Assembly: GCA_007376445.1 (NCBI GenBank)
Contig: VMGF01000001.1
Coordinates: forward strand, 252,203-316,202
DNA length: 64,000 nucleotides
Source: Parcubacteria group bacterium Gr01-1014_3
GTDB taxonomy: Bacteria; Patescibacteriota; Minisyncoccia; UBA6257; WO2-44-18
Reading direction: 5' to 3'
Part shown: positions 1,595 through 45,170 of the stretch, piece by piece
Position numbering within the stretch: position 1 is the first letter of the stretch
How the letters are laid out: each line of letters begins with the position of its first letter
Made by a program: the position numbers and the translations under genes
Notes under the pieces: generated by a model
The model's input: only the letters and a program-made list of their open reading frames with translations
Told to the model about the DNA's origin: nothing
Databases searched by the model: none

Positions 1595-1632
1595 TTATTC
1601 GTGGCATTTGTGCCATTTGTGGATTGGTGTTA

Positions 1633-2733
1633 TTAAAGAGCGAGAGAATAAAGTTTGTTATCATATCGATTAATAAAGTACAGTTTATCTCCGTGGACTT
1701 CGAGTTGATCAGCATCAATAATTAAATCATCGCTGGAGACGAAGAGCGGAAGCGCGCCGCCTAGTGGCCGATGACCTTCGCTGGATAGCGGAATTATATA
1801 AATATTGTCCGCGGTGTAAATTTTGCGTTTCCAGTAATCATCGGGCAGAGCTGATGAGCCAAAAGAGTTTGGGGCGGCGCAGTAAATTTCTATTCTATCC
1901 AGATTAAAGGTGCATTTGGATGGCAAGGTGATTAAGTTGGCTAAATTCCCCAGGCTGATGCCGGCAGCATTAACTAGGGCGAGGGAGTTCTGCCGATTTA
2001 ATGAGCTGAACTTTATTGCCTCTTGTCCGCTTGAGGACCACTTTAAAATAAGGCCAGCCTCATCTTTGATCACGCGGCGGAAAGCGGAGGTTTTCAAATT
2101 AAAAGACCACAATGAGCCAGTTAACCCAGCGGTGGCGCGTTCTTTAAAGTAAACCAAGTCCGGTGTGGCCCAATCTATCTCAATATCCTTTTGAGCGGTT
2201 CGGAAAACTTCGGTGGAGCGGCGTAGGCTGACATCGTAAGTATAAAGCCGGTTCAGAGTTCCATTTTCCCGGAGATAAACCAGGCGGTTATTGTCGGTCG
2301 GACTCCAGCTGACGGCCAGCGTACCGCTTGGTAATCCCTGCCACCCGCTATTAACCGAATTAAAGATTGTAAATGACAGGCCCTGCGGATAGCCGAACCC
2401 TACGATTGCGGAAGTTCCATCGGCGGATGACTCAAGCGAATTAATACTTTTTGGAGCCTGGCTACTGACGGTCTGCGCCACGTTGCCGTCAATTTTTACG
2501 ACTTGGCCCGCTGAGTTTATATAAAATGGAGCGCCATCGGTCTTATTGATCCAGTAAGCCAGAATAGATTCTCCGGAAACCGATTTTGGCTCGTTTTTGA
2601 GCCTTGGTTCTTCGGTCGCGATATCTTCGCTTGCAGGAGCGCCAGCGTTTTGGTCAGCCATAAATTGCCAGATTAAATATCCTGAGCCTCCAACCAGTAG
2701 GGCTACTCCAATGATTAAAAGAATCTTCTTCAT
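1633..2733 (-). CDS. Secreted/anchored beta-propeller-like protein (TolB/WD40-like repeats), hypothetical
   Basis: It has an N-terminal TM/signal sequence (MKKILLIIGVALLVGG) and repeated SPDG/WSP-like strands. It is the last gene of the minus-strand T4SS-like locus. Confidence 0.45.
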   Translation of the reverse strand: MKKILLIIGVALLVGGSGYLIWQFMADQNAGAPASEDIATEEPRLKNEPKSVSGESILAYWINKTDGAPFYINSAGQVVKIDGNVAQTVSSQAPKSINSLESSADGTSAIVGFGYPQGLSFTIFNSVNSGWQGLPSGTLAVSWSPTDNNRLVYLRENGTLNRLYTYDVSLRRSTEVFRTAQKDIEIDWATPDLVYFKERATAGLTGSLWSFNLKTSAFRRVIKDEAGLILKWSSSGQEAIKFSSLNRQNSLALVNAAGISLGNLANLITLPSKCTFNLDRIEIYCAAPNSFGSSALPDDYWKRKIYTADNIYIIPLSSEGHRPLGGALPLFVSSDDLIIDADQLEVHGDKLYFINRYDNKLYSLAL

Positions 2734-2736
2734 GGA

Positions 2737-3564
2737 TTATTGGCCTAAGGCTTTTTTAAGCTTGTCTTCCTCGCTCTGCCAGAGTAATTGTTGATGCTGA
2801 GAGTCCTTTCTCCCCTGTTCATATTGAGCAAACAGTTTTTCGTATTCTTTATTTAATCGTTCAGCTTCGGCTTTATTACCGGCAAGTTTTGCTTCATCTG
2901 CCTTCGCGCCAATAACCGCAAGTTGACGATTTAATTCGTCATTGTTAGCTACAATTTCCCAATACAGAGCTTTTGACGCATTCACATTGTTCTGTAGGAG
3001 ATTGATCAAGTTTTCCTGATTTTTATTGTCTTCATATTGCTGGTTAGCCAGCTTTGCTTTTTCAACGGCCGTTTTAAGCTCTGCATCTCTTTGGGCAGCT
3101 GTTAGCTTAGCTTGCTCTAATTCTGTTTCATACTTTTCGAGCAGTTCGCCGATTGAGGTCTTGGTTTTGGCTGTCGGCAAAGAAACCTTCTGAAGCTCCG
3201 GCAGAGTAAGGTTGGTAAGGTTAGGATTGATGGCGCGGAGGATGACATACGCGCCAAAGAGAAGCACTAAGCCGATCGCGGCTTGGGTGATGCGGTCGTT
3301 GGCGTCTTTAATCTTCGATTCATTACCGGCTGATACGATTCTTTCGATCGCGGCATAAACGATGATGGCCATGCCCAGCAAACCACCAATGCTTAGGCCG
3401 AAAAGATAGATGTAGCGTATATACTCACCAGGATTGGTTATTTGAGTAACTCCACCATCGATTGGAATTGGCACGATTAACGTGGTGGGTTTTATTTGCG
3501 CAAGAGCAAGATTGGAGGAGATCAGCAGGCCGAAGGTTAAGGAAATAAAAAATAGTTTTTTCAT
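2737..3564 (-). CDS. Signal-peptide plus TM protein with long coiled-coil C-terminus (T4SS-like locus component)
   Basis: Signal peptide MKKLFFISLTFGLLISSNLALAQ, one TM segment, and a heptad-rich charged C-terminal half. Confidence 0.45.
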   Translation of the reverse strand: MKKLFFISLTFGLLISSNLALAQIKPTTLIVPIPIDGGVTQITNPGEYIRYIYLFGLSIGGLLGMAIIVYAAIERIVSAGNESKIKDANDRITQAAIGLVLLFGAYVILRAINPNLTNLTLPELQKVSLPTAKTKTSIGELLEKYETELEQAKLTAAQRDAELKTAVEKAKLANQQYEDNKNQENLINLLQNNVNASKALYWEIVANNDELNRQLAVIGAKADEAKLAGNKAEAERLNKEYEKLFAQYEQGRKDSQHQQLLWQSEEDKLKKALGQ

Positions 3565-3565
3565 A

Positions 3566-4276
3566 TTAACGAATTATTAGGTTGGTTGAGGCCGAAGCGC
3601 TTTCGAGAGCTTGGCGGATATTTTGCGCGCTGGCCTCGAGTTTAACTGAAGTTCCTCTCGATAGTCCCCGTGTATCTAAGTCTAGTATATTCGATGCATT
3701 TTCCTCGGTAGCAGCGCCGTTGGCGGTCCAAGTGAAGTTGATCTGATCTAGCCCAGTAATGTTAAAGAAATAAAGGAGCGTTTTTATCGGATTAAGTCCG
3801 GCGGATATTAAATTACCTGGAAATGGAGCATCAATCACCAGTTCCGGATTAACTATCGGCACGGTGATAGTTTTGGATACATCATTACCCTTATAGCCAA
3901 CTACGACTGCCTGAACCGTGGCGTCACCTCTTAGAGAGTCAGCTATGAAAGAAAAACTACGCAATCCCCTGCCCGATTGTCCTAGTTCGTCATTGACGTA
4001 CCAGCGGATCGTATATGGCGCGAGATCAACGAGACGATTATTTTCCAAGAGATCTACGCCGGCCACTACACGCGCTCCGTTAACTGGCAGGACTTTCCCG
4101 GCGTAATCCGGCGGAACGCTATTGCCCGCTTTCCAGCTGAGGAGAAGCTCTGGCGCCTGCTGGGCGGTAGAAGAATTAGGAATCAAGAATAAAGAATAAA
4201 GAATAAATACAATAAAAATTAACCCATAATTCTTGATTCTTGATTCTTGATTCTTAGCCACTGATTCTTGATTCAT
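3566..4276 (-). CDS. Secreted hypothetical protein (T4SS-like locus)
   Basis: It has an N-terminal hydrophobic segment. Its 5' end is built from (aagaatc)n heptamer repeats and their inverted copy. Confidence 0.45.
   Translation of the reverse strand: MNQESVAKNQESRIKNYGLIFIVFILYSLFLIPNSSTAQQAPELLLSWKAGNSVPPDYAGKVLPVNGARVVAGVDLLENNRLVDLAPYTIRWYVNDELGQSGRGLRSFSFIADSLRGDATVQAVVVGYKGNDVSKTITVPIVNPELVIDAPFPGNLISAGLNPIKTLLYFFNITGLDQINFTWTANGAATEENASNILDLDTRGLSRGTSVKLEASAQNIRQALESASASTNLIIR
4178..4273. repeat. (aagaatc)n heptamer tandem repeat with inverted partner (gaatcaagaataaagaataaagaat ... attcttgattcttgattcttgattctta)
   Basis: Perfect 7-bp periodicity. It overlaps the 5' end of ORF 3566..4276. 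Confidence 0.6.
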
Positions 4277-4284
4277 AATTCTGT

Positions 4285-4656
4285 TTATTTTGAAGTGCTT
4301 ATTGGTATTTTCGGCACACCGGGCTTTTTAACGGGCATTTTTTGGGCAATGGACTGGATCTTTTGAGCTACTTGGCTCTCCGGATGGCGGTCGGCATAGA
4401 TCACCATACAGACCCCGATTGTTCTTAACGGCAGAGCGCCGACATAGGGAATAAGCTCAAGCAGGTTCATCGATAAATCATACTCCGCCCCTATCCCTTT
4501 CATTCTAAAATATAATTGGGTTATCGGAAATGTCAGGATATCGATGATCCAAAAGTCGTCTAAGGCCAGGAAAACCAGGATGATGCCGATAATATCGGTA
4601 AGCGCGATATAGCAAACCAGTAAAAAGGCGATGGGAAGTGAGATTTTGGGCTCCAT
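4285..4656 (-). CDS. Small polytopic membrane protein
   Basis: A 123-aa protein with two or three hydrophobic helices, in the same operon direction as the VirB4-like gene. Confidence 0.4.
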   Translation of the reverse strand: MEPKISLPIAFLLVCYIALTDIIGIILVFLALDDFWIIDILTFPITQLYFRMKGIGAEYDLSMNLLELIPYVGALPLRTIGVCMVIYADRHPESQVAQKIQSIAQKMPVKKPGVPKIPISTSK

Positions 4657-4680
4657 GTGAGTAATGAATTATTTAAATAC

Positions 4681-4745
4681 TAATTTTAAATTTTGAATTA
4701 TAAATTTTAATTTAATTTAAAATTGAAAATTTAGAATTTATAATT
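4681..4745. repeat. AT-rich (aatttta/gaaaatt)-type periodic repeat block, intergenic
   Basis: taattttaaattttgaattataaattttaatttaatttaaaattgaaaatttagaattta. Partially palindromic. Confidence 0.5.
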
Positions 4746-6474
4746 ATTTGTTTTCCAATATCTGTTCCGGCTTGGTGGTGATCACCTGGTCTTCCCCATA
4801 CGAAGCTACTATCTGGATAGCCACGTGATTCAAGCCGGCGAAAAACAAACCCAATCCGATCTCTGCCTGAAGCAGAAGGTTTTTTTCGGCTTCGCTGAGA
4901 TTAAAAGTTTTCGCTACGCTATCGATCATCGCCGGAGATTGTTTCAAAAGAAGCTGCATTGAAGAGTTGGTGATGATCGGGCGGCCGAATGGCGAGCTCA
5001 AGAAGTCTTCCACGTCTTGAGTGATAGTGCTGATGCCGAGGAAATATTTTCTGGCTCTCTTTACCAGGGCGAACAAGAAAGAAGCGCCATCCGGATATTT
5101 CATCATCCACCAGGCCTCGTCGATAATCAGAACACGGCGTTTTAATTGAGCGCGGACGATATTCCAAATGAAGTTGAGTACGATATACATCGCGATCGGA
5201 CGAAGTTCGTCCTCAAGGTCACGGATCGAAAATACTACAAGACGATTTTTGACATCAATATTGGTCGGCTGATTAGTGAAGCCAGCATAACTTCCTTTGG
5301 TGAAGCGATAAAGACGTTCGGCGATCTCGCGGCCGCCCTCCATATTTTCTAAAACAGCCTGCAGGTTTTCCATGAGTGGCGGCCTGGCGGTCGAGAAATC
5401 TTTACCAGGCACGATATCAAAAGCCGCGTAAGTTTCTGAGATTGCGCGGTCCAGCAAGGCTTCTTCTTGCGGATTGATCTCGCCAAGCATCAGTTTTACT
5501 AAACCGGTCAGATTTACCACGTGAGACTTCAAAACATCCGCCGGATCTTCACCTTGCGGGATCACCGGAATATCAAAAGGGTTGATGTGGCTTTGCGAAG
5601 CTAACGAAATCTTAAAGAAGCTCCCACCCACCACATTAGCCAGCTGTTGATATTCATTTTCCGGATCAATAATCAAAACATCGGTGCCAGTCATCAAAAG
5701 ACGAAGCGCTTCGAGTTTGGTGGCGTAAGATTTACCGGCGCCGGATTTGGCAAAGATGACCATATTGGCGTTTTCGAGCGAGAAGCGGTCAAAGATGATG
5801 AGGGTGCTGTTGTGGCGGTTAATGCCGTACAAAATTCCTTCATCCGAGGTTAGTGTGGCCGAGACAAACGGAAAGAACGAGGATAATGGGCTGGAATTGA
5901 GCGGGGTGTGAATGTCCAGCTGGTCAGTGCCGAGTGGTAGAACCGAAGAGATGCCTTCGATCTGCTGGAAAAGCGCCGGCTTAGCGTAAACCAACTTACT
6001 TTCCAGGACATAAGTGATCTCGGACTCGAGTTTATTCAGATTTTCGATGGTGTCGGCATAAAGCGTGATATAAACTCCGACATTAAAAAGGTGCTCTTGT
6101 CCCTGCTGGAGAGAATCTCGGAGCGCTTCGATGTCTTGAATGGCAGTTTCTAAGACCGGATTCCGGACTAAGCCCTTCTCTTGCTGTTCAGCGATCTCCG
6201 CCTCCACGATGGCGGCTTTTTTACGGAGATTTTTGAGCGCCATCGGCGTGTCCACCGGATGAACGACGACGGAGATATCTAAAAGATTCGGCAGATTGAT
6301 GATCGGCGAGAACCAACCGGTCGAGAGATAACGAGGATAGGTGAAAATAAAAAGCGTCTTCGCGAATTTATTGCCGAGCTTCACATAATTCGGATTTACC
6401 TCAATAGCCGGTGGGGCGATGATGTTTTTTATTTCTTGTTCCATTATTTTATTGCGCTGGTTCGGCTCGGGCAA
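4744..6474 (-). CDS. VirB4/TrbE/CagE-like type IV secretion ATPase
   Basis: Walker A (FAKSGAGKSYATK) and Walker B (RVLIIDEAWWMM) motifs in a protein of about 576 aa. Gene order and size match VirB4-like ATPases of Gram-positive/CPR T4SS-like loci. Confidence 0.8.
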   Translation of the reverse strand: MPEPNQRNKIMEQEIKNIIAPPAIEVNPNYVKLGNKFAKTLFIFTYPRYLSTGWFSPIINLPNLLDISVVVHPVDTPMALKNLRKKAAIVEAEIAEQQEKGLVRNPVLETAIQDIEALRDSLQQGQEHLFNVGVYITLYADTIENLNKLESEITYVLESKLVYAKPALFQQIEGISSVLPLGTDQLDIHTPLNSSPLSSFFPFVSATLTSDEGILYGINRHNSTLIIFDRFSLENANMVIFAKSGAGKSYATKLEALRLLMTGTDVLIIDPENEYQQLANVVGGSFFKISLASQSHINPFDIPVIPQGEDPADVLKSHVVNLTGLVKLMLGEINPQEEALLDRAISETYAAFDIVPGKDFSTARPPLMENLQAVLENMEGGREIAERLYRFTKGSYAGFTNQPTNIDVKNRLVVFSIRDLEDELRPIAMYIVLNFIWNIVRAQLKRRVLIIDEAWWMMKYPDGASFLFALVKRARKYFLGISTITQDVEDFLSSPFGRPIITNSSMQLLLKQSPAMIDSVAKTFNLSEAEKNLLLQAEIGLGLFFAGLNHVAIQIVASYGEDQVITTKPEQILENK

Positions 6475-7165
6475 TTTCTAATCTTTTTTTCTCAATCGAT
6501 TCTGGGTTGTATAGATTATAAAAAAGTTCCACGATTTCTTCGTTGGCCAAAAGTACCGATCTTAAGCCCATAGAATTCAAGCCACCGATAACCTCGTCTA
6601 CTCTTTGGGTTAATTGCTGGAGATTCTGCTGGAATTGCGGACCCATTTCTGAATTAGCCGAGGTAGAAGCCTTTTTGCCAAAGATTCCAAAGATCTTATT
6701 AAAGATTCCGGCGCCGCCCTTGGTTGGAAGAAAGACCGGATCAAAAGGAACGACCACGAAAAAAGTTTTCGACATGATCGGATTTTGAGAAACGAAGCTT
6801 TGCACGAAATCGTGGTATCCGGTTAATTGCGTCTTGAGCAGCTCGTTTGGTTCTTGAGCCTGGATCCCCTCCAAACGGCGCAAATAGTCCTCAATATTCA
6901 AACGGCGGGAATGAATAAAGACCTGCACGGAAAAATTCAGTGAATTTAGAAAATTTTGGTAAGCATAAGTAAGCAGTCCTTGCTCCTCCTCGGACTTTAA
7001 ATCAAAATTAACTCCGCTGACCATCAAAATTTGGCGCAATCCGCCATTTTTTAAGATCAGGGTGTTCTCCTGGACTGTTTCAATATTAATAAACTTCTGC
7101 GTCGGTTGAGATTTCGCTTGTGCCATCTTCCTTATTATAACAAACTTCACCAATATACGAATCAA
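6449..7165 (-). CDS. Hypothetical protein of the T4SS-like locus (start probably at the internal Met MAQAKSQ, about nt 7126)
   Basis: A contiguous ORF immediately upstream of the VirB4-like gene. No recognisable motif. Confidence 0.4.
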   Translation of the reverse strand: MIRILVKFVIIRKMAQAKSQPTQKFINIETVQENTLILKNGGLRQILMVSGVNFDLKSEEEQGLLTYAYQNFLNSLNFSVQVFIHSRRLNIEDYLRRLEGIQAQEPNELLKTQLTGYHDFVQSFVSQNPIMSKTFFVVVPFDPVFLPTKGGAGIFNKIFGIFGKKASTSANSEMGPQFQQNLQQLTQRVDEVIGGLNSMGLRSVLLANEEIVELFYNLYNPESIEKKRLEIARAEPAQ

Positions 7166-7182
7166 GCACTAATATACGAACA

Positions 7183-7650
7183 CTAGAATGACGAGTCTTT
7201 AGAATCTTGCGCCTGTTTCAGCGCTGTCGGTGAAGCCTTTTCTCGCCCAACGATACCGGCTGTGGTCGTCAAAAGTTTGGTCCAAAGGCTCTTAATTGAA
7301 GTTTTCCCTTCAGGTGAGCTCATTTGGCCGGCTTTAGGCAGGCGGATTTCGGTCAATTTAAGCGTGGCGTCTTCTCTTTGCCAGAGGTACATTCTTGGCT
7401 GCCAAAAGTAGCTCACTATGCTCTTTAAAATGACCGGCAGAGGCCGTCCGTTGAACTTAATAAACGCTAAAGCCGCCGCCGCGGTGCCCAAAATAACAGT
7501 GATAATCAGCCAAAGCCAGATTTGGAGCACAAAGAACAAGAAAAAGCTGATTAGCGAGGCCACGCCTATATATAGGAACTGCTTGAGTGTGAGCGGGCCG
7601 ACTATCTTAGTTTCCGTTTCGATAAATTGTGGAACCTGAAATTGGCTCAT
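7183..7650 (-). CDS. Two-TM small membrane protein (VirB3/PrgI-like candidate)
   Basis: A 155-aa protein with two adjacent TM helices. Its position near the VirB4-like ATPase is as expected for VirB3-like proteins. Confidence 0.4.
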   Translation of the reverse strand: MSQFQVPQFIETETKIVGPLTLKQFLYIGVASLISFFLFFVLQIWLWLIITVILGTAAAALAFIKFNGRPLPVILKSIVSYFWQPRMYLWQREDATLKLTEIRLPKAGQMSSPEGKTSIKSLWTKLLTTTAGIVGREKASPTALKQAQDSKDSSF

Positions 7651-8285
7651 TGGTTTTGGTCTGGCTTAGGAAAATTTATCGGCAATCTCACGATTGGTGG
7701 ACGGAGGGGCTGAAAGGTTGGGCGATTTTGCGGGATCGGGGGCGGGGTTGGAATTTGGCGAACCGGGGGTTCTACGACAACCTTCGGAGGTTCAACTCTT
7801 ATGGCTATTGGTGTTTGGATTGGTTGGGCTGGTGCCGGAGTTATGCTGTCATTCTGATCCGCCGGCTGGCGGAGAAGAATCTCGAGTTCCTTCGGCTGCG
7901 CCTCAGGATGACCGGGCCCCGGTTTCGCGAAATAAATTAATTTAATATCTATATCCGCCTCCCTTCTCAGTTGTCCTTCGATCGGCCGGAGAATTTTTTC
8001 TTCGATCTCTTGGGCGATATTTTTGGCGCTATTAAAATCTATATCCAACTCTTCGGAAAGAATATTAATAAATTCACCCGGCTCAATATCTTTGGTAACT
8101 AACCGGAGAATGGTAGTCGGAATTATTTTTACTAATGGCCCGGCCATATCCAGCCTTTCATTAATATCAATAACCACATAAGTCGCCCTCTCGGAGGTCA
8201 GCCATTCGCGGATTTTATCCGGAAGCTCGTCAAATTTTTTTCTTAAATCAGCTTTATTCATCATCGCCGATAGTTTGTTGGGCAA
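7647..8285 (-). CDS. Hypothetical protein with proline-rich C-terminus
   Basis: An ORF with a PPxxP-rich tail, translationally coupled to its neighbours. Confidence 0.45.
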   Translation of the reverse strand: MPNKLSAMMNKADLRKKFDELPDKIREWLTSERATYVVIDINERLDMAGPLVKIIPTTILRLVTKDIEPGEFINILSEELDIDFNSAKNIAQEIEEKILRPIEGQLRREADIDIKLIYFAKPGPGHPEAQPKELEILLRQPADQNDSITPAPAQPIQTPIAIRVEPPKVVVEPPVRQIPTPPPIPQNRPTFQPLRPPIVRLPINFPKPDQNQ

Positions 8286-10296
8286 ACTTTAATTTTTTAT
8301 AAGCAATCTTTTGAGTATCACTTCCGGCTGTTAATTTGGTTTTCTCATCAGCTCGATAGACTTTCAAAATTGACTGCAGAGTAGAAACCTTGCTCTTATC
8401 GCCGACTTCTTTAGCTTCGGTAATTTGCTTAAGAGTAAGGGCGATATCTTCATTGATTTTCCGGAGATCCGCGCCGATCTCTTTTTCCATGGTCTTTTTC
8501 AGGGCGGATCGTTGAAGTATAGTGCCCCTGCGATAGATATCACTAATTGCCGCTTGACTTAAACCAAGTACAAAATCCACCTCGTTAAACATCTCTTTTT
8601 CCACGTCCGCGGCTTTATCGGCGCGCATCTTCTCGGCAATCTGCTTGAGGGTCTTGCCGGTAAGTTTGGCGGTTAATCTTGGGCTCGTAGAGAGCGCGTC
8701 TTTAACATTCGGAACGTTTTCGATATTTTTCCTAATCTTTTTGCCGTCCACGATTTCTTCGGTATCGGCAATGCCTGGATTAACCTTTCGTGAAGCTTGA
8801 ATGAATTGTTCAAGACGCGCGTCCTTTTCCTCCGAAGTTGCCAAGTGCGCGGTTAATCCGCCAACTTCTTTACGCTTAACCGACTCAGCCAAAAGAGCTG
8901 CTTGTTCCACCGGACTGATTCTTTCGATTCTTGTAGTTTTTTGGCGTTCAGCAAACTGCTGTTCAGTCAGGCTAGATAGATATTGTTTCTGATAATCACC
9001 TACTTCATTAGATCGAGAGGCAGCTACATTCAGCCCCGCCACGGCGGCTTTGCTGCCAGGAATCCAACGCAGGGCTTTAGTATTTAATAGATTGGCGAGA
9101 GCATTGGCGCCGGCTTTAGCTGGACGCGTGCCAAGCTCTTGTGCCCCGGCCCGAGCGCCCGTCAATGGTAATCTCGCCGCTTTCCCGGTCGCGCCAATAA
9201 TCCAGCCCTTGGCGCTGTTCGCCATGCCCATAGCGGTATTCGCGCCAACGGCGCCAAGTTTTTGAGCTACTATTAACCCCGCGAACATCATTCCAACCTG
9301 GACTATGATTTGCAAAAAGCCGATCAAGACGCCCTCACTTAGCCCGGAGATCGTTTTAGCGGCCGCGAAGGCTTCCGGACTGGCTTGGCTTTTTAATACC
9401 GCGCCGAGTTTATCGGAGGTAAGAATACTTAAGTAAAGGAAGAATGAAATGGCGGGGAAAAATACGTTCCATTTCAAAAAAGTACTCCACCATTCAGAGC
9501 TGTGCTTAGCTAGATTCGGGAATATCCAGGCTAACCAGGCGAGTGGCATCACAATCAGCAAGAAGATCAGATAGATATACCGGACAAGGAGCATGAAAGC
9601 GATCGCGAAGAAAGTGATTACGAGGGTGGTCATAAATATCGCGGTGGAGGCCACCGAAACGAATGCACTGATATAACTTAATCCGAACTTTAAAATGTCG
9701 CCGCTGATATTTTCTGGAACGGCGATTTTAATGCCGCTCAGGCTGCTTACATTCAAGCTTTGCGCCAAATTGGCGGCAAAGTTATTAATATTTTCTGGAG
9801 AGGCAGCTTGAATGAAGTAGTTACCAAAAACATTGAAGAAATCGATGATGATGCCGGCAAAAGTGAAGCTGAAGTTGACTAACAAAGCGGCCGCGACCAA
9901 TTTCCAAATCATCTGCTTAAAGCCGTAGTTTTGCAGGCGGAGCATGGTGGCAAAAGCAATGACAATAATTGCAATGACGAAGCCTAAATTTGTCATACTC
10001 AATGTCAATCTGAATCCTTCACGCACAAGAGGGCTGCTAGTAATTTGCGGGCCTAAGTTAATCAATACACCTATAAGAGAGCTGGCGATTGAAATTAAAA
10101 ATCCCGCCACTATGCCTATCATGTTGCCAACCGCTAATGAGCCCCAGTTGAAAAACTGCATTAAGCCACAGAGTATCCAGCCCGACTGGCATTCAGGCGT
10201 TTTTTCTTGCGCGAAAGCCAGCGCTGGTGCCAATAATACCGAAACCATCATTAAACCCAAGAGGAATTTTTTCATTATGGATTGGTTAGCTGGCAT
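8254..10296 (-). CDS. Large polytopic membrane protein, VirB6/TrbL-like
   Basis: A 680-aa protein with a signal peptide, many TM helices in the N-terminal 350 aa, and a charged coiled C-terminal domain. This is typical of VirB6-like proteins found next to VirB4 in CPR loci. Confidence 0.55.
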   Translation of the reverse strand: MPANQSIMKKFLLGLMMVSVLLAPALAFAQEKTPECQSGWILCGLMQFFNWGSLAVGNMIGIVAGFLISIASSLIGVLINLGPQITSSPLVREGFRLTLSMTNLGFVIAIIVIAFATMLRLQNYGFKQMIWKLVAAALLVNFSFTFAGIIIDFFNVFGNYFIQAASPENINNFAANLAQSLNVSSLSGIKIAVPENISGDILKFGLSYISAFVSVASTAIFMTTLVITFFAIAFMLLVRYIYLIFLLIVMPLAWLAWIFPNLAKHSSEWWSTFLKWNVFFPAISFFLYLSILTSDKLGAVLKSQASPEAFAAAKTISGLSEGVLIGFLQIIVQVGMMFAGLIVAQKLGAVGANTAMGMANSAKGWIIGATGKAARLPLTGARAGAQELGTRPAKAGANALANLLNTKALRWIPGSKAAVAGLNVAASRSNEVGDYQKQYLSSLTEQQFAERQKTTRIERISPVEQAALLAESVKRKEVGGLTAHLATSEEKDARLEQFIQASRKVNPGIADTEEIVDGKKIRKNIENVPNVKDALSTSPRLTAKLTGKTLKQIAEKMRADKAADVEKEMFNEVDFVLGLSQAAISDIYRRGTILQRSALKKTMEKEIGADLRKINEDIALTLKQITEAKEVGDKSKVSTLQSILKVYRADEKTKLTAGSDTQKIAYKKLKFAQQTIGDDE

Positions 10297-11717
10297 TGGG
10301 TTAGTTGCAGGTTAAATCCGGCAAGTTTCTGGGTGATGTTGGTAGCTACCTCTTCATCCATTGCTTCAATGGCGGATTTAAATGAAGAAGCATCGATTGG
10401 TTTTAAGATGGAGGTAATCGAGTTGTAAATTGTGCCCATCTTGGCAAAATCAGTTTCAGTTTTTTGGAGAGAGGCAATGTCGGCTTTGGCTTGAACCAGC
10501 GGATCTATGATCGCCTGATTAGCGGCTTTGTCCGCTTGAAGGAGAGCGATAGTGGCATCGGTAGCGCTGATCTCGTTTAAGATCGCGTCTTTGACTTGCG
10601 TTACTACGACTATAGACGGGAAAAGAGGCGTGGCTATACAGATCGTAGTAGGGAGATTGGTGAAGTCTTGATGAAGCTTTTGAAGATCAGCCTTGAACTT
10701 GATCAAAGCATCGATGGTCAGGTTAACAATTATCCCAGCTTGTTGACGAGGAACGAGAGTCTGATCGATCTCGTCTAAGAATGTAGTTTTTTGTTGATCG
10801 AAACTGTTATTAAGCACTTCGTTGTATATTTTAGTGATGTCATCTTGCTGCTTGTCAGTAATAGATTCTTGCAAGCCGGTCAAACCCTCGGCGACCAGAC
10901 GATTAACTAGAGAATTAGCAATCGCGCTCGCGTATTCACCAAGCTGTTGGGCGTTTAAGATAAAGTCAAAGTCTTTTCCAACGGCCTTAGATACTAAGTC
11001 GCCAACCGTAGAGCCAGGAGTGATGATACGGCATTTTTCCGTGCCATCAGGAAAAAGCTCACATTTCTTTTGTGATATAAATCCATCGCCTGCCTGGGCT
11101 TCATTATAAGCGGCAAAGGCGGCCGCGGATTTTCGGATCTCATTTTCTTGAAGGGCCATAATCAAAGCTCCGAAATAGTTATTTCTTGGCTGAAGCGAAG
11201 TGCCATAAGCTAGCCAACCGCCATTTCTGAAGTCATTATAAAAATTGTTAATATTTCCGACAATCTTATCGAGAGTGCATTCAGCTTTTTGCGCGAAAGT
11301 TGGAATTTTGTAGAAGTTTATCTGGATACCAAAACGGAATGGTTCGCAGAGAAAGCCAGCGCCAAGTTCTTTGGCGAAATCTCCCGCTGCCGCTTGACCA
11401 GCATCTTCCAGAAAACCTTTCCAGTCAGTAACGAACTGTGGCTGACCGCCACCCTGGATATAAGAAACAACCTGGTCAACCAAGACATCTAACAGTCGCC
11501 GCTTAAGCGTGGAGAGGGCAAAAGTTTCCAGCCAATCCAAAATTTGTTGCGCCGCTGACTTGGTTGTAGCGGCGGCAATCGCGGCTGCCTGGGCATGTAT
11601 AACAGCATCGGCTATCATAACTGGAATAGCGGCTTTGGCGGTTGGGATTGGAAACGACCCGATGGTCTGCATCAGTATCGTGATTCCTAGAAGGATTGTT
11701 AAGATTCGTCTTTTCAT
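10275..11717 (-). CDS. Secreted hypothetical protein
   Basis: Signal peptide MKRRILTILLGITILMQTIGS, 480 aa, and it overlaps the downstream gene. Confidence 0.45.
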   Translation of the reverse strand: MKRRILTILLGITILMQTIGSFPIPTAKAAIPVMIADAVIHAQAAAIAAATTKSAAQQILDWLETFALSTLKRRLLDVLVDQVVSYIQGGGQPQFVTDWKGFLEDAGQAAAGDFAKELGAGFLCEPFRFGIQINFYKIPTFAQKAECTLDKIVGNINNFYNDFRNGGWLAYGTSLQPRNNYFGALIMALQENEIRKSAAAFAAYNEAQAGDGFISQKKCELFPDGTEKCRIITPGSTVGDLVSKAVGKDFDFILNAQQLGEYASAIANSLVNRLVAEGLTGLQESITDKQQDDITKIYNEVLNNSFDQQKTTFLDEIDQTLVPRQQAGIIVNLTIDALIKFKADLQKLHQDFTNLPTTICIATPLFPSIVVVTQVKDAILNEISATDATIALLQADKAANQAIIDPLVQAKADIASLQKTETDFAKMGTIYNSITSILKPIDASSFKSAIEAMDEEVATNITQKLAGFNLQLTQCQLTNP

Positions 11718-11719
11718 AG

Positions 11720-12475
11720 TTAGATTGTCAGGCCATTTTGCGACATAAATTGAGTGATCTTTTGCCCTAGGCTGGCAAGCTGGTTCTGAATGTCCGGCAT
11801 CATTTTACCGGCCACCAGAGCTTTTAGCGGGTCATCTTCATAATTGGCTAGGCTGGTGAAGATGTTTTTTTGAATAGTCAGCAATTTGATTTCTTCTTGA
11901 TGAATGCCGGATAGTACTTCCGGAACATTCAGTGAGTAAAACTGATCAAGCGTCTTTTCGTAGGCCAGTACTAGCTTCTGGAAGTCCTCAGTGTTCGGTT
12001 TTTGAAAGTCTATACCGAGAGTAGAGAAGTTACCGGTAAGTATTGATCGGAAATTTTTTAAATAATTACCCCAAACGGTTTTATCGGAAGTCTTTATGAT
12101 CTTTAACGCGGCAGCTTCGATGCTTGGGCTAAGATCGGGATAGTTGATATTGCCAAGCTCTGCCTCTAAAACTTTTTGCGCTAACTTATCCGGCTCAAGC
12201 GCGTTGATTTGTTGTTGGCCGCCAATGACCGAAGGACCTTCCGGATTTAATTTAATAATTTCTTCGGTGATCTTTTGAGAGAGTTTATTTAGCTCAGCGC
12301 TGGTGGCTTTTGGTTCATTCATATCTATGAAAGAAGGCAGCTGTTGCGGATTGGCTGAGAGATTAGCGATTCCCGTTTCTGTACCAGCGCCGTTTTTTTC
12401 ACTAACGATAAAAATTGCCAGAGTAGCCGAGCCGGCCAGGAGTAAAATCGCGAGTATGTTTTGAAATTTGAACAT
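11720..12475 (-). CDS. Secreted hypothetical protein
   Basis: Signal peptide MFKFQNILAILLLAGSATLA. Confidence 0.45.
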   Translation of the reverse strand: MFKFQNILAILLLAGSATLAIFIVSEKNGAGTETGIANLSANPQQLPSFIDMNEPKATSAELNKLSQKITEEIIKLNPEGPSVIGGQQQINALEPDKLAQKVLEAELGNINYPDLSPSIEAAALKIIKTSDKTVWGNYLKNFRSILTGNFSTLGIDFQKPNTEDFQKLVLAYEKTLDQFYSLNVPEVLSGIHQEEIKLLTIQKNIFTSLANYEDDPLKALVAGKMMPDIQNQLASLGQKITQFMSQNGLTI

Positions 12476-12498
12476 CTTGTGGTGAGTTTACCGAACCA

Positions 12499-12909
12499 TT
12501 ATTGAGAGCACCAACAAATTCCCAGCACCCAGAGCGCGCCCTGAGGTGGCGGGCAGAGAAGATTTAAACAACCAGGTATGGTTCCACTGGGTGTATGAAT
12601 ATCAAACGGCGGACCGGCTACCGCGTAGAATCTTGGGACAGTCTGCGGAGTATAATCACCTCCTTGGCGCCAGACGGTCGGATTATGAGTGGCTTGTCTG
12701 GCGAAAAACTTCTCAAATCCTGTAAAGGTATTAAGGGATGGCCGGGCCTTCCAGAAATCATAGGCGCTGATGCCAGATTTCAAGGTTTCTTTAACAGTTC
12801 GTTGCGGATTTTTGAGTAGCTCTAAACGAGTTGGCTGTGAAACAGCCAACGCATTGGTGGCGAGTGAACCGATAAGGATAAAAACCGCAATAAAGCCTGC
12901 TAGACGCAT
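12499..12909 (-). CDS. Small secreted protein; first gene of the minus-strand locus
   Basis: Signal peptide MRLAGFIAVFILIGSLATNALA. Confidence 0.4.
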   Translation of the reverse strand: MRLAGFIAVFILIGSLATNALAVSQPTRLELLKNPQRTVKETLKSGISAYDFWKARPSLNTFTGFEKFFARQATHNPTVWRQGGDYTPQTVPRFYAVAGPPFDIHTPSGTIPGCLNLLCPPPQGALWVLGICWCSQ

Positions 12910-17144: not shown

Positions 17145-17160
17145 GGGCTCCAGACAACTA

Positions 17161-17292
17161 CTTTTTCGAAAACAGAATAATCCGGCTCCAGCAGCCGGAT
17201 TTTCTTCGCCCTCGGCACGCCGGTCCGACCTTTTGGTCGGACACCGATCTTAGGATAGACCAGCCGGCGCGCCTCCGGGATGTTCCGAAAAA
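17161..17292. repeat. GC-rich structured repeat element, copy A (bidirectional terminator hairpin plus structured module closed by a long-range helix)
   Basis: About 85% identical to 43939..44071. Helices are maintained by compensatory changes (outer helix tttttcg/cgaaaaa here versus cctcttt/aaagagg in copy B). Confidence 0.6.
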
Positions 17293-17341
17293 TCAGTTGT
17301 CCTCCGCTTTGTTAACTAAATGAAAGATTTTTATATAAAAA

Positions 17342-17385
17342 GCCCCCATTCTGTTTAACAGAATGGGGGCGATGTTTTATTTCGT
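17342..17385 (-). terminator. Rho-independent terminator (hairpin gcccccattctg-tttaa-cagaatgggggc plus T-run), serves the minus gene 17377..18228
   Basis: A 12-bp GC-rich stem with U-runs on both strands. Confidence 0.6.
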
Positions 17386-18228
17386 TTCTCGAATTACCAT
17401 TTCGACCAGCACTTCTTCGTAGTGACCGATCAATCCGGCAGCGCGTCCGAGCATGGCTCGGTAGGTGTTATGCCATCCCGGACGTTGGCTCGCGTTGATG
17501 ACCATGCCGTAGCAGGTCTCGAACCGATCCAGAAATTTATACACCGTTCGGCTGATGAAGATGAAACGCTTGATCAGAAGCTTCTGCTCTTCGTGGTTAA
17601 GCGCCGGTCCATCTTCGAGCTCTTTGGCGAGGATCATTTCCTTAACGAACTTGCTCAGCTCGCCAATCACATCGCCGAGACCCGCCAGCCAGCCTGGGAA
17701 TGGGATGCTCAGCTTGTGATGCCGCTCTTCGGGAGGCAGAGCTTCTTCGGTTGATACCAGTTCGTCGAGACTATCATCAGCTTTCGGATCCCCCATCTTG
17801 TACCAGAGATTCTGAAGAACTTCCTGGGTCCGCTTTTGGATCGTTGCCCGGTCTTGGGCATACTCGGGATGCAACAGCGGCACAAGATGAAAAACTCCCT
17901 CGGCCTCCACTACTTCGCCACCGGATTCGGTGTCCTTTTCAGAGGCGAAGTGCAGGGGTAGATCAAGGTCCGAAAGCTCTTTCCAAAGGTCTGCGAAGAT
18001 CTGTCGGAATTCGTCAGCCTTGCTAAGGTCACCATACTTCAGAGCCTTGATAAATTCTTTTGAGGTTTTGACCAATAAGTTCGCGACCGCGTAAGATCCG
18101 CCGATATCACGGCGCTGCTGCTCCGACTTGTCTTGAATGCTTTTCGAAATCCGATCGATATCATCGATTACCGGATTGCCCATGAGCGTAAACAGACGCT
18201 CTTCAAGCTCTCGCATTTGTCGAACCAT
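17377..18228 (-). CDS. Hypothetical protein, elevated GC (second gene of the GC-rich pair)
   Basis: A 283-aa ORF with a taggagc RBS before the ATG. No recognisable domain. Confidence 0.5.
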   Translation of the reverse strand: MVRQMRELEERLFTLMGNPVIDDIDRISKSIQDKSEQQRRDIGGSYAVANLLVKTSKEFIKALKYGDLSKADEFRQIFADLWKELSDLDLPLHFASEKDTESGGEVVEAEGVFHLVPLLHPEYAQDRATIQKRTQEVLQNLWYKMGDPKADDSLDELVSTEEALPPEERHHKLSIPFPGWLAGLGDVIGELSKFVKEMILAKELEDGPALNHEEQKLLIKRFIFISRTVYKFLDRFETCYGMVINASQRPGWHNTYRAMLGRAAGLIGHYEEVLVEMVIRETK

Positions 18229-18396
18229 ACTAAAAGCTCCTAAAAAAGAGTGAAAAGAACCATTGCTCGAAATGAGCAGAGTTCAAAGTTTTGTTCTTTT
18301 GTTAAAGAACTCATCATTAGTGGCTAGATTCCGCTTCACCCGCCATAGGCGGGCAAGCTTGCAAAGACTGCTAACAACTAATGATAAATTCTCTAA

Positions 18397-18443
18397 TTTT
18401 TAAAAAGGTGCCCCAGTGGAGTGTTTTGCACACTCCACTGGGG
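18397..18443 (-). terminator. Rho-independent terminator for gene 18481..19380 (14-bp stem ccccagtggagtgt/cacactccactgggg plus T5)
   Basis: A perfect hairpin followed by TTTTT on the minus strand. Confidence 0.65.
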
Positions 18444-18480
18444 CGTTGCTGGTTCTCGCTTGATCAGCCGTTGCGGCTGA

Positions 18481-19380
18481 TTAGACCCGACGCCGGAAGT
18501 CCCTGCCTCCCCGGAAGCCGTGCTTCGCGGAGCGGTTGACCTCGCCGAGGGCGTTGACGTTGGATCCAAGCTTGGTGAGCTTGGCCCGACGCCTTTCGTC
18601 CTGGGCCTTGACCTCGCCGATTTCCGCCCCCATCTCCTCCGCGATGCTGGTGGCTTCGGCGTGGGTGTGACCGTGGAAGATCCTGGAGTCCGTGCCCTGA
18701 GGCAACGTTTCCCGGTAGTCCCTCACACAGTCACGGCAGATCGCGCCGACTCGGAAGGTTCCATCCTCGTTCGGGAGAACGAAGAAGTTCCCGCTCCGAT
18801 ACGGCTCACCGGTCTTCTGGTTGATGACCGGCCTGTCGTCCTTCACGGAGGTCCAGGACATCGCCTGGAACTCCTCTTCGCCGATGTCGCACATCGCGAG
18901 GCCGGAGGTCGTGTCGTCGGGGCGAACGTCGCGCAGCGTTTTGAGCTGCTCGGCCTTCGTGCCTTCCTCGGTGAGCTTGTCCTGCAGCCAGACGATGGCT
19001 TCCTTCGTTTCCGCCAGCGTGAGCTGACGTCCGAGGCCCAGCGCCCGGTTCTTCAGGATCTGGAACCGCAGCCGGTAGTTGAAACCGGCCTTGGGATTCA
19101 CCGGGCTGGGACGGGTGTCCGCGTAGCCCCCGGCGATGAGGTAGTCCTGCGCCACGGGGGTGACACAGTAGCCTTCCAGCGAGAGGGGCTTGTACCCCTT
19201 CGTCTTGAGCTCCTTGTTTTTCTCGGCCATCTCAGCCGACGTCATCGGCTTGTCGCTCCGTTCGCGCTTGACCGGCTTGTCCGCCATCGGGGCGGGCTCG
19301 CTGCCTTCTGCCCGAGCCATCTTGAGGCCCTCGGCTCGCTGGTCCTCTCGGACCTCGTCCTTGCCATTCGATCCCTTCAT
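18481..19380 (-). CDS. Hypothetical protein, strongly GC-rich, with charged N-terminus and RGG-like C-terminal tail
   Basis: The start is set at MKGSNGKD (ATG at 19380), which is preceded by GGAGG with 6-nt spacing. The longer listed ORF (to 19434) adds a spurious hydrophobic extension. Confidence 0.5.
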   Translation of the reverse strand: MKGSNGKDEVREDQRAEGLKMARAEGSEPAPMADKPVKRERSDKPMTSAEMAEKNKELKTKGYKPLSLEGYCVTPVAQDYLIAGGYADTRPSPVNPKAGFNYRLRFQILKNRALGLGRQLTLAETKEAIVWLQDKLTEEGTKAEQLKTLRDVRPDDTTSGLAMCDIGEEEFQAMSWTSVKDDRPVINQKTGEPYRSGNFFVLPNEDGTFRVGAICRDCVRDYRETLPQGTDSRIFHGHTHAEATSIAEEMGAEIGEVKAQDERRRAKLTKLGSNVNALGEVNRSAKHGFRGGRDFRRRV

Positions 19381-19494
19381 GAAAAACCTCCAGAAAAGGA
19401 AACCAAAAAACCAGAAGTTACTCCAAAAAATCAACCTCGAGCCACATAGCTAGAGGCCGGAGTAACGTTGTGCCCTTGTTTAAGATCTGCGCTC

Positions 19495-19522: not shown

Positions 19523-19672
19523 TACCCCGCCAGAGGCGGGCAAGCCCCCCATCTGCCTTAATTCAAAGTGCTTCTGGTTAATAAAACACCCCAGTTTAGC
19601 CACAGGTTTCGGTTGACATTCTCGGTTTTTATTCTTAATATATCGGTGGTTGTTTTACAAAGGAGTATTACC

Positions 19673-27915: not shown

Positions 27916-28776
27916 CTAGGACAGATTTTTTAATTTAGAATTTAAGTTCAGTTTGGGGTATAAGTCTTGAGGGTAGATTGCGACCAGGCGTATTCCAAGT
28001 TTTTCACAAATTTTTTTCTTAATTTTCATATCTCGATCATAACGCGGACTATCTCCTGCGAGACCGAAATACTCTATGAATAATGTGTCATTTATAGCCC
28101 AGTCCGCTTTGTGACCACTATTGGGATAAGGGAAATCTCGTAGGTGCTTAACTTCGTTGTCGGATAGCCAGTTATCAATCAACGCCTCGGAGATAGAATC
28201 ACAAGAGTGGCCATCTTTCGCCTTGGTCATCGTGCGTTTATACATTCTGTGCTCGTGAGAACGATTAGGTTCCAAGCCCGCGGCTTTAATGGCGTTGCCC
28301 CAAGAACCGAATGCATATATACATGGACTTGCTAGTTCGGGTATTTCACGTTTTGCCGGGACCCTTCCCAGCTTCTCATAAGTATGTTTTAGAGATTTAA
28401 TCAGATCCTCTGGTTTATGTCGCACGCGAGATTTCTTATAGCAAACATTTGCGCAATAGATATTGCCGCCTGTAAATTGTTTTTCGCAGATTCGGCAAAT
28501 TTTTAACTTAATAACATGTTTAGGAAATTTTTTGTTATTAACAATAGCGGCGCACCTCATAGAACAGTAATTATGCGCCCCAACTTCTTTTCTAAATTTT
28601 TTAAATTCGGCGCCGCATTCAGTGTTTTCACAAACAAATGATACTTGTTTATTAAAGGAACGGCCTTGACACTCCTTGGAACAATAAAAATTATGCCCCA
28701 ATTTTTGATTTTCGTTAAATCTATTCCTGGGTTTAAAAAACTTTTTTCTGCAATTATTACACCGCACCTCTGGCAT
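27916..28776 (-). CDS. Multi-zinc-ribbon protein with C-terminal Vsr/DUF559-like endonuclease-like domain, putative
   Basis: At least four CxxC pairs in the N-terminal half. The C-terminal segment ADWAINDTLFIEYFG...RYDRDMKIKKKICEKLGIRLV resembles PD-(D/E)XK Vsr-like folds. The gene is AT-rich and abuts tRNA-Pro. Confidence 0.4.
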   Translation of the reverse strand: MPEVRCNNCRKKFFKPRNRFNENQKLGHNFYCSKECQGRSFNKQVSFVCENTECGAEFKKFRKEVGAHNYCSMRCAAIVNNKKFPKHVIKLKICRICEKQFTGGNIYCANVCYKKSRVRHKPEDLIKSLKHTYEKLGRVPAKREIPELASPCIYAFGSWGNAIKAAGLEPNRSHEHRMYKRTMTKAKDGHSCDSISEALIDNWLSDNEVKHLRDFPYPNSGHKADWAINDTLFIEYFGLAGDSPRYDRDMKIKKKICEKLGIRLVAIYPQDLYPKLNLNSKLKNLS

Positions 28777-33135: not shown

Positions 33136-33579
33136 CTAATCTCGAAGAGCGTTTCTATCCCACCACCCTGTCTTATAGAGTCTATGTAAAACTTTATATG
33201 TATCGGCAACCATTGGATCTGAGCCGATCTTTTCTAGCCAATCTACAAATTGCTTAGATTTATGACCCTTTAATTTCCCATAGAAAAAGGGGATTATGAT
33301 ATTTTTGAGATCCCCAAAATTACGCACCATTAAAGCAGCCCGTAATCCACGAATAGAGCCAACTACTTCTTGGGGTTTATGTATATAAACTCGAGACTTA
33401 AGGCCAAGATGATCTCTAACGGCCTCGATTAACTCTTTATCTCTAATATGCATAACTAGCGCAAAGGCCGGCATTTTCTCTTTTACTGGTAATCCATCTT
33501 TGGTTGTGCTCCGGGTGTGAAATGTAAAACAGCCCTCTCCATCTACTAACCCACGGATATATTCATTGCTTAGCTTCAT
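33136..33579 (-). CDS. LAGLIDADG homing endonuclease, single-motif (I-CreI-like, homodimeric type)
   Basis: Motif YIRGLVDGEGCF near the N-terminus in a 147-aa protein. The gene is free-standing rather than inside a recognisable intron or intein. Confidence 0.75.
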   Translation of the reverse strand: MKLSNEYIRGLVDGEGCFTFHTRSTTKDGLPVKEKMPAFALVMHIRDKELIEAVRDHLGLKSRVYIHKPQEVVGSIRGLRAALMVRNFGDLKNIIIPFFYGKLKGHKSKQFVDWLEKIGSDPMVADTYKVLHRLYKTGWWDRNALRD

Positions 33580-43316: not shown

Positions 43317-43928
43317 ATGACCAATAAACAAGAAGTTAGGAACGACTACCTGATCCCGACGGTTATCGAGAAGGTTGCCGGAGGTGAGCGGGCTTTTGAT
43401 ATTTATTCTCGCTTACTGAAGGAACGCATCATCTTTTTAACCGGTCCTATCAACGATGTAGTAGCCAACTTGGTTATCGCTCAATTACTTTTCCTGGAAC
43501 ACGAAGATCCGAAAAAGGATATTAAACTGTACATCAACAGCCCGGGTGGTTCAGTGACGGCTGGTATGGCGATCTATGACACGATGCAGTATGTAAAACC
43601 GGATGTTTCCACGATTTGCGTGGGAATGGCGGCTTCGATGGGCGCGGTATTGCTTGGTTCTGGCGCCAAGGGAAAGCGTGTGGCTTTGCCGAACGCGGAA
43701 ATCTTGCTTCACCAGGTAATGGGAGGCGTGGAAGGTCAGGCGAGCGAGATCGAGATCACCGCTAAGCAAATCATTAAGATGAAGGAGCGTTTGAATAATG
43801 TGCTTGCTAAAAATACCGGTCAGTCACTTTCTAAGATCGAAAAAGACACCGATCGCGACTTTTATATGACCGCGGCGGAAGCCAAGGAGTACGGGTTGAT
43901 CGACGAGATCATCAAAGGAAAGAAGTAG
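43317..43928 (+). CDS. clpP: ATP-dependent Clp protease proteolytic subunit
   Basis: Active-site region [11 protein letters not shown], a His in LHQVMGG, and overall ClpP length and layout. Confidence 0.9.
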
Positions 43929-43938
43929 GTTCGAGCAT

Positions 43939-44071
43939 CCTCTTTCCGGAAACAGAATAAAACGGCTCCAGCGGCCGTTTTTTCTTCGCCCTCGGCGCGC
44001 CGCTCCGGCTTAAGTCGGAGACCGATTATAGGAGAACAGCCGGCGCGCCTCCGGGATGTTCCGTAAAGAGG
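43939..44071. repeat. GC-rich structured repeat element, copy B
   Basis: See copy A at 17161..17292. It includes the bidirectional terminator acggctccagcggccgt plus T-run, a GGCGCGCC core, and the closing helix cctctttccgg/ccgtaaagagg. Confidence 0.6.
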
Positions 44072-44105
44072 ATACTCTCAACTCGGTGAATTAAATGTGG
44101 TAAAA

Positions 44106-44134
44106 TTGACAAAATAGGGTATTTGTCTTAGAAT
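44106..44134 (+). promoter_or_regulatory. Promoter TTGACA-17-TAGAAT for ORF 44186
   Basis: Consensus -35 element with 17-nt spacing, followed by a 5'UTR hairpin aatcggga-atgg-tcccgatt. Confidence 0.55.
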
Positions 44135-45047: not shown

Positions 45048-45170
45048 GAATCCCACACATAACAAAGAGCGCTGTGGCGATTCGGTAGTGGTCGTAAATA
45101 ATAGAATTACTTATAAAAATAATTAACCAAGAACAAAGAGCGAATACATAAACTCTTTGTTATGTGTGGG
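45048..45170. repeat. 20-bp perfect inverted repeat pair (ATCCCACACATAACAAAGAG ... CTCTTTGTTATGTGTGGGAT) enclosing about 83 bp; MITE-like or long-range leader helix
   Basis: The arms are exact reverse complements. The 3' arm ends at the tyrS ATG. An internal direct repeat aacaaagagcg occurs twice. Confidence 0.55.

Follow-up and report, generated by a model that had tools for sequence, protein, structure and literature searches.

A family of structured extragenic repeats with a three-way-junction fold and a terminator-like arm in Parcubacteria

REP, BIME and REPIN sequences are multi-copy, GC-rich, extragenic and structured, and are found at the 3′ ends of genes or between convergent ones. 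Their fold is strand-specific, with G·T or G·U wobbles, they may be present in one genome and absent from a relative, and they can act as terminators or as stabilisers of mRNA 3′ ends. REPs are single hairpins of 20–40 nt, have a conserved 5′ tetranucleotide, number in the hundreds and are RAYT-dependent. ERIC (IRU), the Correia elements of Neisseria, pneumococcal RUP and BOX, and bcr1 of Bacillus cereus are intergenic, 100–160 bp long and form stable RNA structures; they carry terminator, promoter or RNase sites, are transcribed into mRNA tails, and have copies with conserved terminal inverted repeats and, usually, target-site duplications. Compensatory changes between copies have reportedly been seen in bcr1. 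The genomes of the CPR (Patescibacteria) are tiny and were not expected to hold repeat families, and we know of almost nothing described about CPR non-coding RNAs. Here we describe a family of elements in Parcubacteria that resembles REP, BIME and REPIN in multiplicity, composition, position, strand-specific folding and patchy occurrence, and ERIC, Correia, RUP, BOX and bcr1 in length, intergenic position and structure.

We analysed a stretch of 64,000 nucleotides from Parcubacteria group bacterium Gr01-1014_3 (the window), in which an initial annotation had placed two GC-rich copies of a structured element. Both are present where it put them, about 26 kb apart, and a 26-mer, AGCCGGCGCGCCTCCGGGATGTTCCG, occurs exactly twice in the window and in none of 100 shuffles. 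Matches of a covariance model (R1) extend beyond the annotated ends, to 17152–17302 for copy A (143 bits, E = 2e-40) and 43932–44078 for copy B (140.8 bits), and a covariance-model scan with filters off found only these two in the window. The identity of the copies, first put at roughly 85%, measured 81% over the annotated coordinates and 78% over the full elements by global alignment. The GC content of the element is 55–58% (55% in copy A) against a window background of 46%. Compared with dinucleotide shuffles, copy A folds with z = −5.3 on the plus and −8.0 on the minus strand, and copy B with z = −4.6 and −4.7, respectively.

The annotation had also called for a search beyond the window, and further copies are indeed found in other Parcubacteria contigs. 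Nine members are known: A, B and seven in metagenomic or metagenome-assembled genome (MAG) contigs, of which five are canonical, one is divergent and one decayed. An 18-mer from the core, scanned against metagenomes, gave 94 loci, mostly chance matches in GC-rich DNA; BLAST with the whole element picked L043 (Ga0082335), L011, L090 and L091, and a variant copy in L084 was detected after the scan and BLAST. L011, L090 and L091 are contigs of the Hainich H51 0.1-μm groundwater sample with coverage 12. Several copies occur in this one assembly (H51 contigs 56, 6 and 3904, each with coverage 12), and its coverage-12 contigs together hold at least five, divergent and decayed ones included. The covariance model R1 added a divergent copy, L011b (L011 4356–4476, 60 bits), and a new copy in an unrelated NCBI MAG (L295 6842–6961, 81 bits). 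The blocks GAAACAGAATAA and TTTTCTTCGCCCTC, which lie outside the search pattern, are conserved in the copies of other genomes. The members number only nine, several of them from one sample, and the conservation of the 18-mer block is forced by the search that found five of them.

A broader covariance model, R2, run over 324 kb of Parcubacteria loci gave no additional members, and a scan of genome contigs with a 20-mer that included variable P3 pairs gave only two chance matches, in GC-rich genomes. Two scans of IMG/VR with conserved 14- and 15-mers, which addressed a viral or phage origin, likewise returned chance matches only. At gathering thresholds, Rfam 15 reports seven tRNAs and nothing else in the window; with E ≤ 10, copies A, B and L295 give weak, mutually inconsistent matches of terminator type (10–24 bits), and the comparison with Rfam that the annotation had recommended therefore leads to none of its families. 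Searches of the literature by sequence and, in full text, by topic returned nothing relevant to the element. The family is previously undescribed in Parcubacteria (CPR). A structured region directly after a reverse-transcriptase (RT) gene in L011 (11744–11892, minus strand) scores 20–22 bits with the family model and has the P2 loop CGCCGGAG and the junction CGA in common with it; it may be a distant relative of the family or an unrelated RT-associated RNA.

The family has the architecture of a three-way junction, predicted on both strands by RNAalifold on MAFFT alignments, with a closing helix P1, a terminator-like arm P2 and a variable arm P3, in 120–150 nt (up to 232 nt with insertions). 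Read 5′ to 3′ on the minus strand, the order is P1a (variable, ending CGGAAC), AU, P3, CGA, P2 and P1b (G-YUUCYG, then variable). P1 is a helix of 17–35 bp with a variable outer part and a conserved inner CGGAAC/GUUYCYG. The base of P3 is conserved as CCC-G(G/C)A-GGCG ... CGCY-GA-GGG, with a purine-rich internal loop, and its tip is free to vary. P2 is laid out as AGAAAAU-stem-loop-stem-AUUAUUCU, that is, A-tract, GC hairpin and U-tract. The shared core noted by the annotation is conserved, except that it is not confined to the 26-mer: around the junction, about 45 nt hardly vary among members. The strands at the junction itself measure only 0–3 nt, and the conserved bases are mostly within helices.

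On the minus strand of copy A (151 nt; minimum free energy −83.5 kcal/mol, versus −65.2 kcal/mol on the plus strand), the 5′ strand of P1, with its variable outer part and conserved CGGAAC, occupies 17282–17302. It is followed by the 5′ core of P3, CCC-GGA-GGCGCGCCGG (17264–17279), which forms the conserved base of the arm with a GGA/GA internal loop; by the distal region of P3 (17224–17263), which differs in length and sequence among members and includes the hairpin gtccgacc/ggtcggac; and by the 3′ core of P3, CCGGCGUGCC-GA-GGG, with the junction CGA (17206–17223). A G·U pair at GUGCC in this 3′ core is an A·C mismatch on the plus strand. P2, with A-tract, GC hairpin and U-tract and a bidirectional terminator-like appearance, lies at 17174–17205 (17201–17179 in the terminator scan) and the 3′ strand of P1 at 17152–17173. 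Copy B (147 nt; −73.3 on the minus versus −69.5 on the plus strand) has the same parts on the same strand: P1 5′ strand at 44058–44078, P3 with its conserved base and variable distal part at 43989–44055, P2 at 43954–43985 (43981–43959 in the terminator scan; the plus strand reads AAAACGGCTCCAGCGGCCGTTTTTTCTTCG) and P1 3′ strand at 43932–43953. In the L084 copy (6546–6777, minus strand), R1 resolved a 94-nt insertion in the loop of P2; a further GC hairpin, CCTGCCTGCCGGCAGGCAGG, follows P3, and several P1 pairs are broken. This is a decaying copy or a nested insertion.

Between A and B, eight pairs are changed on both sides, three become wobbles and one is broken; as first annotated, the arms of the inner hairpin vary between the two copies and retain their pairing, and the outer closing helix differs in sequence and is paired in both. 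In the nine-member alignment, standard pairs fill 94.7% of the pair cells, and double compensatory changes are seen in 32 of 43 pairs (14 of 18 in P1, 10 of 13 in P2). When the 3′ partner was slid by one to three columns as a control, 40–54% of cells were paired and 10–17 pairs showed double changes; the covariation score was 0.60 against 0.12–0.16 for the slid registers, and none of 500 shuffles reached the observed values. The nine-member alignment was fitted to the model, which inflates these counts somewhat; alignments made with MAFFT alone already give double changes in 19 of 40 and 22 of 43 pairs. In addition, single-sequence minimum free energy folds of L011b and L295, for which no model was used, have the same Y shape. 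Covariation support is comparable to that of accepted Rfam motifs. The outer differences between A and B, which might have been flanking target sequence, are thus paired, covarying positions in the further copies as well, and the proposal of a small-RNA or structured-repeat family under selection for its structure is supported by these copies and by covariation above the controls.

A transition within a stem leaves G·U on one strand and A·C on the other, with equal chance. On the minus strand, however, G·U is found in 23 cells and A·C in 3 (17 versus 3 counted by pair; binomial 9e-5), which indicates that the minus strand is selected as a single strand. In individual members several core pairs read A·C on the plus strand and G·U on the minus strand, G·A or A·G outnumbers U·C by 10 to 2 on the minus strand, and the minus orientation is the more stable in all nine members, by 2.5–18 kcal/mol. 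The element had been read on the plus strand in the annotation; the G·U excess and the stabilities place the structural selection on the minus strand. The folded minus strand is most likely RNA and less likely single-stranded DNA (ssDNA).

Every copy adjoins at least one gene 3′ end. The annotation had both window copies at the 3′ ends of plus-strand genes, as they are: A follows a LysM/M23 peptidase gene ending at 17144 and B follows clpP, ending at 43928. In six of the nine copies a gene in plus orientation enters the element within 3–130 nt, the genes being those for the M23 peptidase (A), ClpP (B), 16S rRNA (L043), GyrA (L090), an Mqo-like oxidoreductase (L091) and pyruvate kinase (L295); in the same six, P2 is the first terminator-like hairpin downstream of the gene, and the gene that follows in the RNA orientation is convergent. 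With 130 nt between the 16S 3′ end and the L043 copy, we considered whether the element belongs to 16S rRNA or to an intron, and rejected this: the other copies follow protein genes. The 16S gene of L043 (1894–4500) is itself split: close to the 3′ end it contains an insert of about 1.1 kb with a LAGLIDADG ORF and a group-II-intron D1–D4-like match. The 16S 3′ tail, GGATCAATTAAATT, is without the usual CCUCC anti-Shine–Dalgarno. Homing-type genes occur in the window too, among tRNA genes: a free-standing LAGLIDADG endonuclease ORF (33136–33579, minus strand) and a protein with a homing-endonuclease-associated repeat (27916–28776, minus strand). No neighbouring protein is common to the member loci, and we rejected homology between the neighbours of A and those of B, having found none.

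The hairpin with T-run that the annotation described as terminator-like is found in both copies. A scan for GC hairpins directly followed by a U-run flags P2 on the minus strand at 17201–17179 and 43981–43959, and the plus strand has TTTTCTTCG after the hairpin of copy A and TTTTTTCTTCG after that of copy B. From its sequence, P2 looks like a bidirectional intrinsic-terminator-like arm that would end transcription. In copy B it is the sole terminator candidate from the clpP stop (43928) to the next promoter (44106–44134).

In the orientation of the folded strand, a co-directional gene lies upstream of copy A, L091, L011a, L011b and L084. Such genes usually have their own terminator 25–60 nt ahead of P1 (so in four copies), and transcription of the full element would therefore need read-through. 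L011b, which begins 6 nt past the stop of a co-directional DoxX gene, is the only member placed so that transcription of the folded strand is nearly unavoidable. No sigma-70-like promoter consensus was found upstream of the element in minus orientation. A and B have some 12 more bases in common, CATTTARTT.AC, 10–25 nt upstream of P1.

Orthologous sites without the element are readily found. Five relatives have a plain terminator after clpP, then tyrS (a diversity-generating retroelement, DGR, in L296), and lack copy B and the neighbouring ORF268. L303 (GCA_964361325.1) has the gene order of the window around copy A (317-aa gene, 283-aa gene, M23, PcrA, rRNA methylase, type IV secretion system (T4SS) genes); in place of the copy it has a 50-nt spacer with a small hairpin, the upstream terminator hairpin being retained. 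L011 is syntenic with 59.3–64 kb of the window; the copies that it has by its isochorismatase and DoxX genes are absent there, and DoxX of the window is followed by a plain hairpin. Distribution is sporadic, most related loci having no copy within 20 kb. A Logan contig with clpP (L003), assembled from the window organism, breaks off within copy B. Taken together, the absences at orthologous sites, several copies per assembly, a decayed copy and the assembly break in B speak for an expendable and probably mobile repeat, and against a housekeeping RNA with a fixed locus.

The T4SS genes mentioned above belong to a type-IV-secretion- or conjugation-like cluster (about 1600–12500, minus strand, and in L301) with a T4SS pilin, a VirB4/TraG-type ATPase, a TraC-like protein and PrgI, which adjoins the replication-origin genes dnaA, dnaN, rnpA and yidC and is also present in L303; dnaA lies just left of the window. 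Between clpP and tyrS of the window, an inverted repeat of about 20 bp, atcccacacataacaaagag ... ctctttgttatgtgtgggat (45049–45172, plus strand), encloses the tyrS leader and extends to the start codon at 45162. Rfam gives no match to this repeat and the covariance model only a weak one of hairpin type; it may be a tyrS leader or attenuator structure.

A partner enzyme was sought in the surrounding genes. Pfam searches covered about 44 of the 67 window ORFs, together with ORFs flanking the other copies, and returned no transposase, integrase or HUH enzyme. No RT was found in the window, by Pfam in about 44 of the 67 ORFs or by tblastn with the L011 RT, nor at the other loci; the only RT near any copy is that of L011 (11883–12944), 2.4 kb from one of the copies of that contig, and probably that of a DGR, cut off at the contig end. 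We rejected a link with RTs, retrons or DGRs, since no RT was found in the window, complete DGRs in L296 and L298 are without the element, and the family-model match beside the L011 RT does not rise above 20–22 bits. PADLOC found nothing.

We also rejected the idea that the element bounds gene cassettes, the candidates being ORF268 by B, a GC-rich gene pair by A, and the RT, radical-SAM and NDT genes by L011a. That copy A borders the GC-rich pair, as annotated, is correct; a linkage of the pair to the element is not borne out, because L303 has the pair in synteny and no copy of the element. Nor does the boundary reading hold elsewhere, because in relatives the radical-SAM and NDT genes are part of the NAD cluster and because ORF268 is an ORFan without informative homologues. 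The pair (17377–19434, minus strand) consists of genes for proteins of 317 and 283 aa, each with its own terminator and no assigned function. The 317-aa family has 16 representatives in 1.8 billion proteins and conserved Cys pairs; weak single-sequence PDB matches to a Cas6e-like RNase vanished with a family profile, and we discarded that candidate. The 283-aa protein gives a weak match to NCBIfam PRK14562. A motif, CTTGCCCGCCTNTGGCGGG, which forms a small GC hairpin, occurs on the minus strand at 19526–19544, immediately ahead of the 317-aa gene's TTGACA-N17-TATAAT promoter, and at 18339–18357, in the spacer upstream of the 283-aa gene (0.06 matches expected), and may be an operator shared by the two genes. 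ORF268 (44186–44992, plus strand), whose sole database match is itself, has a near-consensus promoter (TTGACA-17-TAGAAT) and its own terminator; the clpP–tyrS slot that it fills holds in L296 a complete DGR (target gene with VR, TR and RT).

The reading that we place first, tentatively and somewhat short of calling it probable, is that the element is an expendable and probably mobile Y-shaped RNA module with a bidirectional terminator, the junction of which likely serves as a protein-recognition platform. We infer that the element is transcribed, that P2 terminates, that a protein binds at the junction and that the element moves. On this proposal P2 would halt transcription arriving from either side, and read-through on the element's own strand would yield the complete Y-shaped RNA. 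A putative protein would bind the core of about 45 nt, for RNA processing, for stabilisation or for propagation of the element. The copies take spots held in relatives by plain terminator hairpins, always against a gene 3′ end. There is a tension here: if P2 terminates efficiently, P1 could not form in the released transcript, though P1 covaries strongly.

Alternatively, the minus strand may fold as ssDNA and be a site for a recombinase or an HUH-type transposase, in the manner of attC, of IS200/IS605 ends or of REP and RAYT, with the enzyme encoded elsewhere. A strand-specific fold that tolerates G·T and G·A mismatches is equally expected of ssDNA, no promoter consensus was found for the element, and the conserved core would be what the enzyme recognises; such an enzyme would also account for the spread of copies, and presence/absence polymorphism with several copies per genome fits as well. 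The inner P1 has AAC ... GTT, like the R boxes of attC. However, only these bases fit: the consensus R″ RYYYAAC and R′ GTTRRRY compares with CGGAAAC ... GTTCCG in the element. Furthermore, neither the scanned window ORFs nor the flanks of the other copies contain a tyrosine recombinase or Y1/HUH transposase, the copies are isolated, without cassette arrays, and the folded strand of A and B is on the leading-strand template (judged from GC skew and dnaA at the left), where it is less exposed as ssDNA. We regard this as unlikely.

It is also possible, though to our mind doubtful, that the copies are stand-alone small RNA genes (paralogous sRNAs or a protein-partnered non-coding RNA) that are immobile and are each transcribed on the minus strand from a weak or non-canonical promoter of their own. 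Close to the junction the sequence is almost invariant in genomes whose proteins are only 50–70% identical, covariation is of RNA type with G·U and G·A pairs, the elements are GC-rich in an AT-richer genome, and the match of some 12 bases upstream of A and B could belong to such genes. Against this stand the missing promoter consensus, the sporadic distribution, the decayed copies, the lack of a conserved position or partner gene, and a terminator-like arm in the middle of the molecule.

A more far-reaching idea, and a quite improbable one, is a self-propagating structured RNA, either a retro-mobile RNA that borrows a CPR reverse transcriptase or a new class of small ribozyme. Reverse transcriptases are common in CPR genomes, and DGR RTs occupy the same intergenic slots in relatives. 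If it were true, ready-made bidirectional terminators would be installed at gene ends of streamlined CPR genomes.

Very unlikely, in our judgement, is a cis-regulatory RNA (riboswitch or attenuator) or a self-cleaving ribozyme, with the junction as ligand pocket or active site and P2 as expression platform. Aptamers and small ribozymes typically have a three-way junction, conserved junction-proximal nucleotides and variable tips, and one of the L011 copies lies 62 nt upstream of the co-directional NAD-salvage genes pncA–pncB. Most members, however, are not in the 5′ leader of a co-directional gene, and the convergent downstream gene in six of the nine leaves nothing to regulate; no riboswitch or ribozyme family of Rfam matches even at E ≤ 10, and the junction strands measure 0–3 nt, with the conserved bases mainly in helices. 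It is scarcely credible that the fold is not selected at all and that we see a duplicated palindromic terminator with chance similarity elsewhere, because, although P2 resembles an ordinary bidirectional terminator and template switching in imperfect palindromes (quasi-palindrome correction) can imitate compensatory change, the blocks outside the search pattern are conserved in other genomes, the conserved fold is branched and not a single palindrome, and the excess of G·U over A·C and of G·A over U·C, with all nine members stabler on one strand, is unexpected from strand-symmetric DNA repair.

The family offers a testable handle on a new CPR RNA–protein system, or on the spread of a terminator-supplying non-autonomous element without terminal repeats. 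For annotators, the covariance model explains assembly breaks such as the Logan contig ending in copy B, and marks gene-order breaks between related genomes.

Among described systems, integron attC sites are like the element in being defined by structure more than by sequence, in strand-specific folding, in length, in a possible branched variable tip and in the inner AAC ... GTT pairing. The element differs from them in its much more conserved sequence, three-way junction and invariant core; its window copies are 26 kb apart, and the scanned ORFs hold no intI or integrase domain. In retron msr–msd RNAs terminal inverted repeats likewise close a junction bearing two stem-loop regions, whereas eight of the nine element copies are without an adjacent RT (Pfam finds no RVT_1 near A or B), the arms are short and the copies are multiple and dispersed. 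Bidirectional intrinsic terminators are matched by the P2 arm alone and by its location where relatives have plain terminators, but P2 is set within a larger conserved fold, P1 and P3, that terminators do not need. Compared with REPs, the element is a three-way junction of 120–150 nt with an invariant core of 45 nt and few visible copies, and RAYT or HUH proteins were not found in the scanned ORFs. Unlike ERIC, Correia, RUP, BOX and bcr1, it has no conserved terminal inverted repeats: the outer P1 differs between A, B and the other members and is still paired, so the element is not a classic MITE, a comparison that the annotation had suggested. Four copies are flanked by (G)GA ... (G)GA(G); in the others there is no repeat, or P1 simply continues. 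By analogy, the element would work most like the REP/BIME or ERIC/Correia/bcr1 types of structured repeat that double as terminators. It is outside the definition of these types, having no conserved terminal repeats, no cognate enzyme in view and a branched fold, and we file it as a structured extragenic repeat or orphan non-coding RNA.
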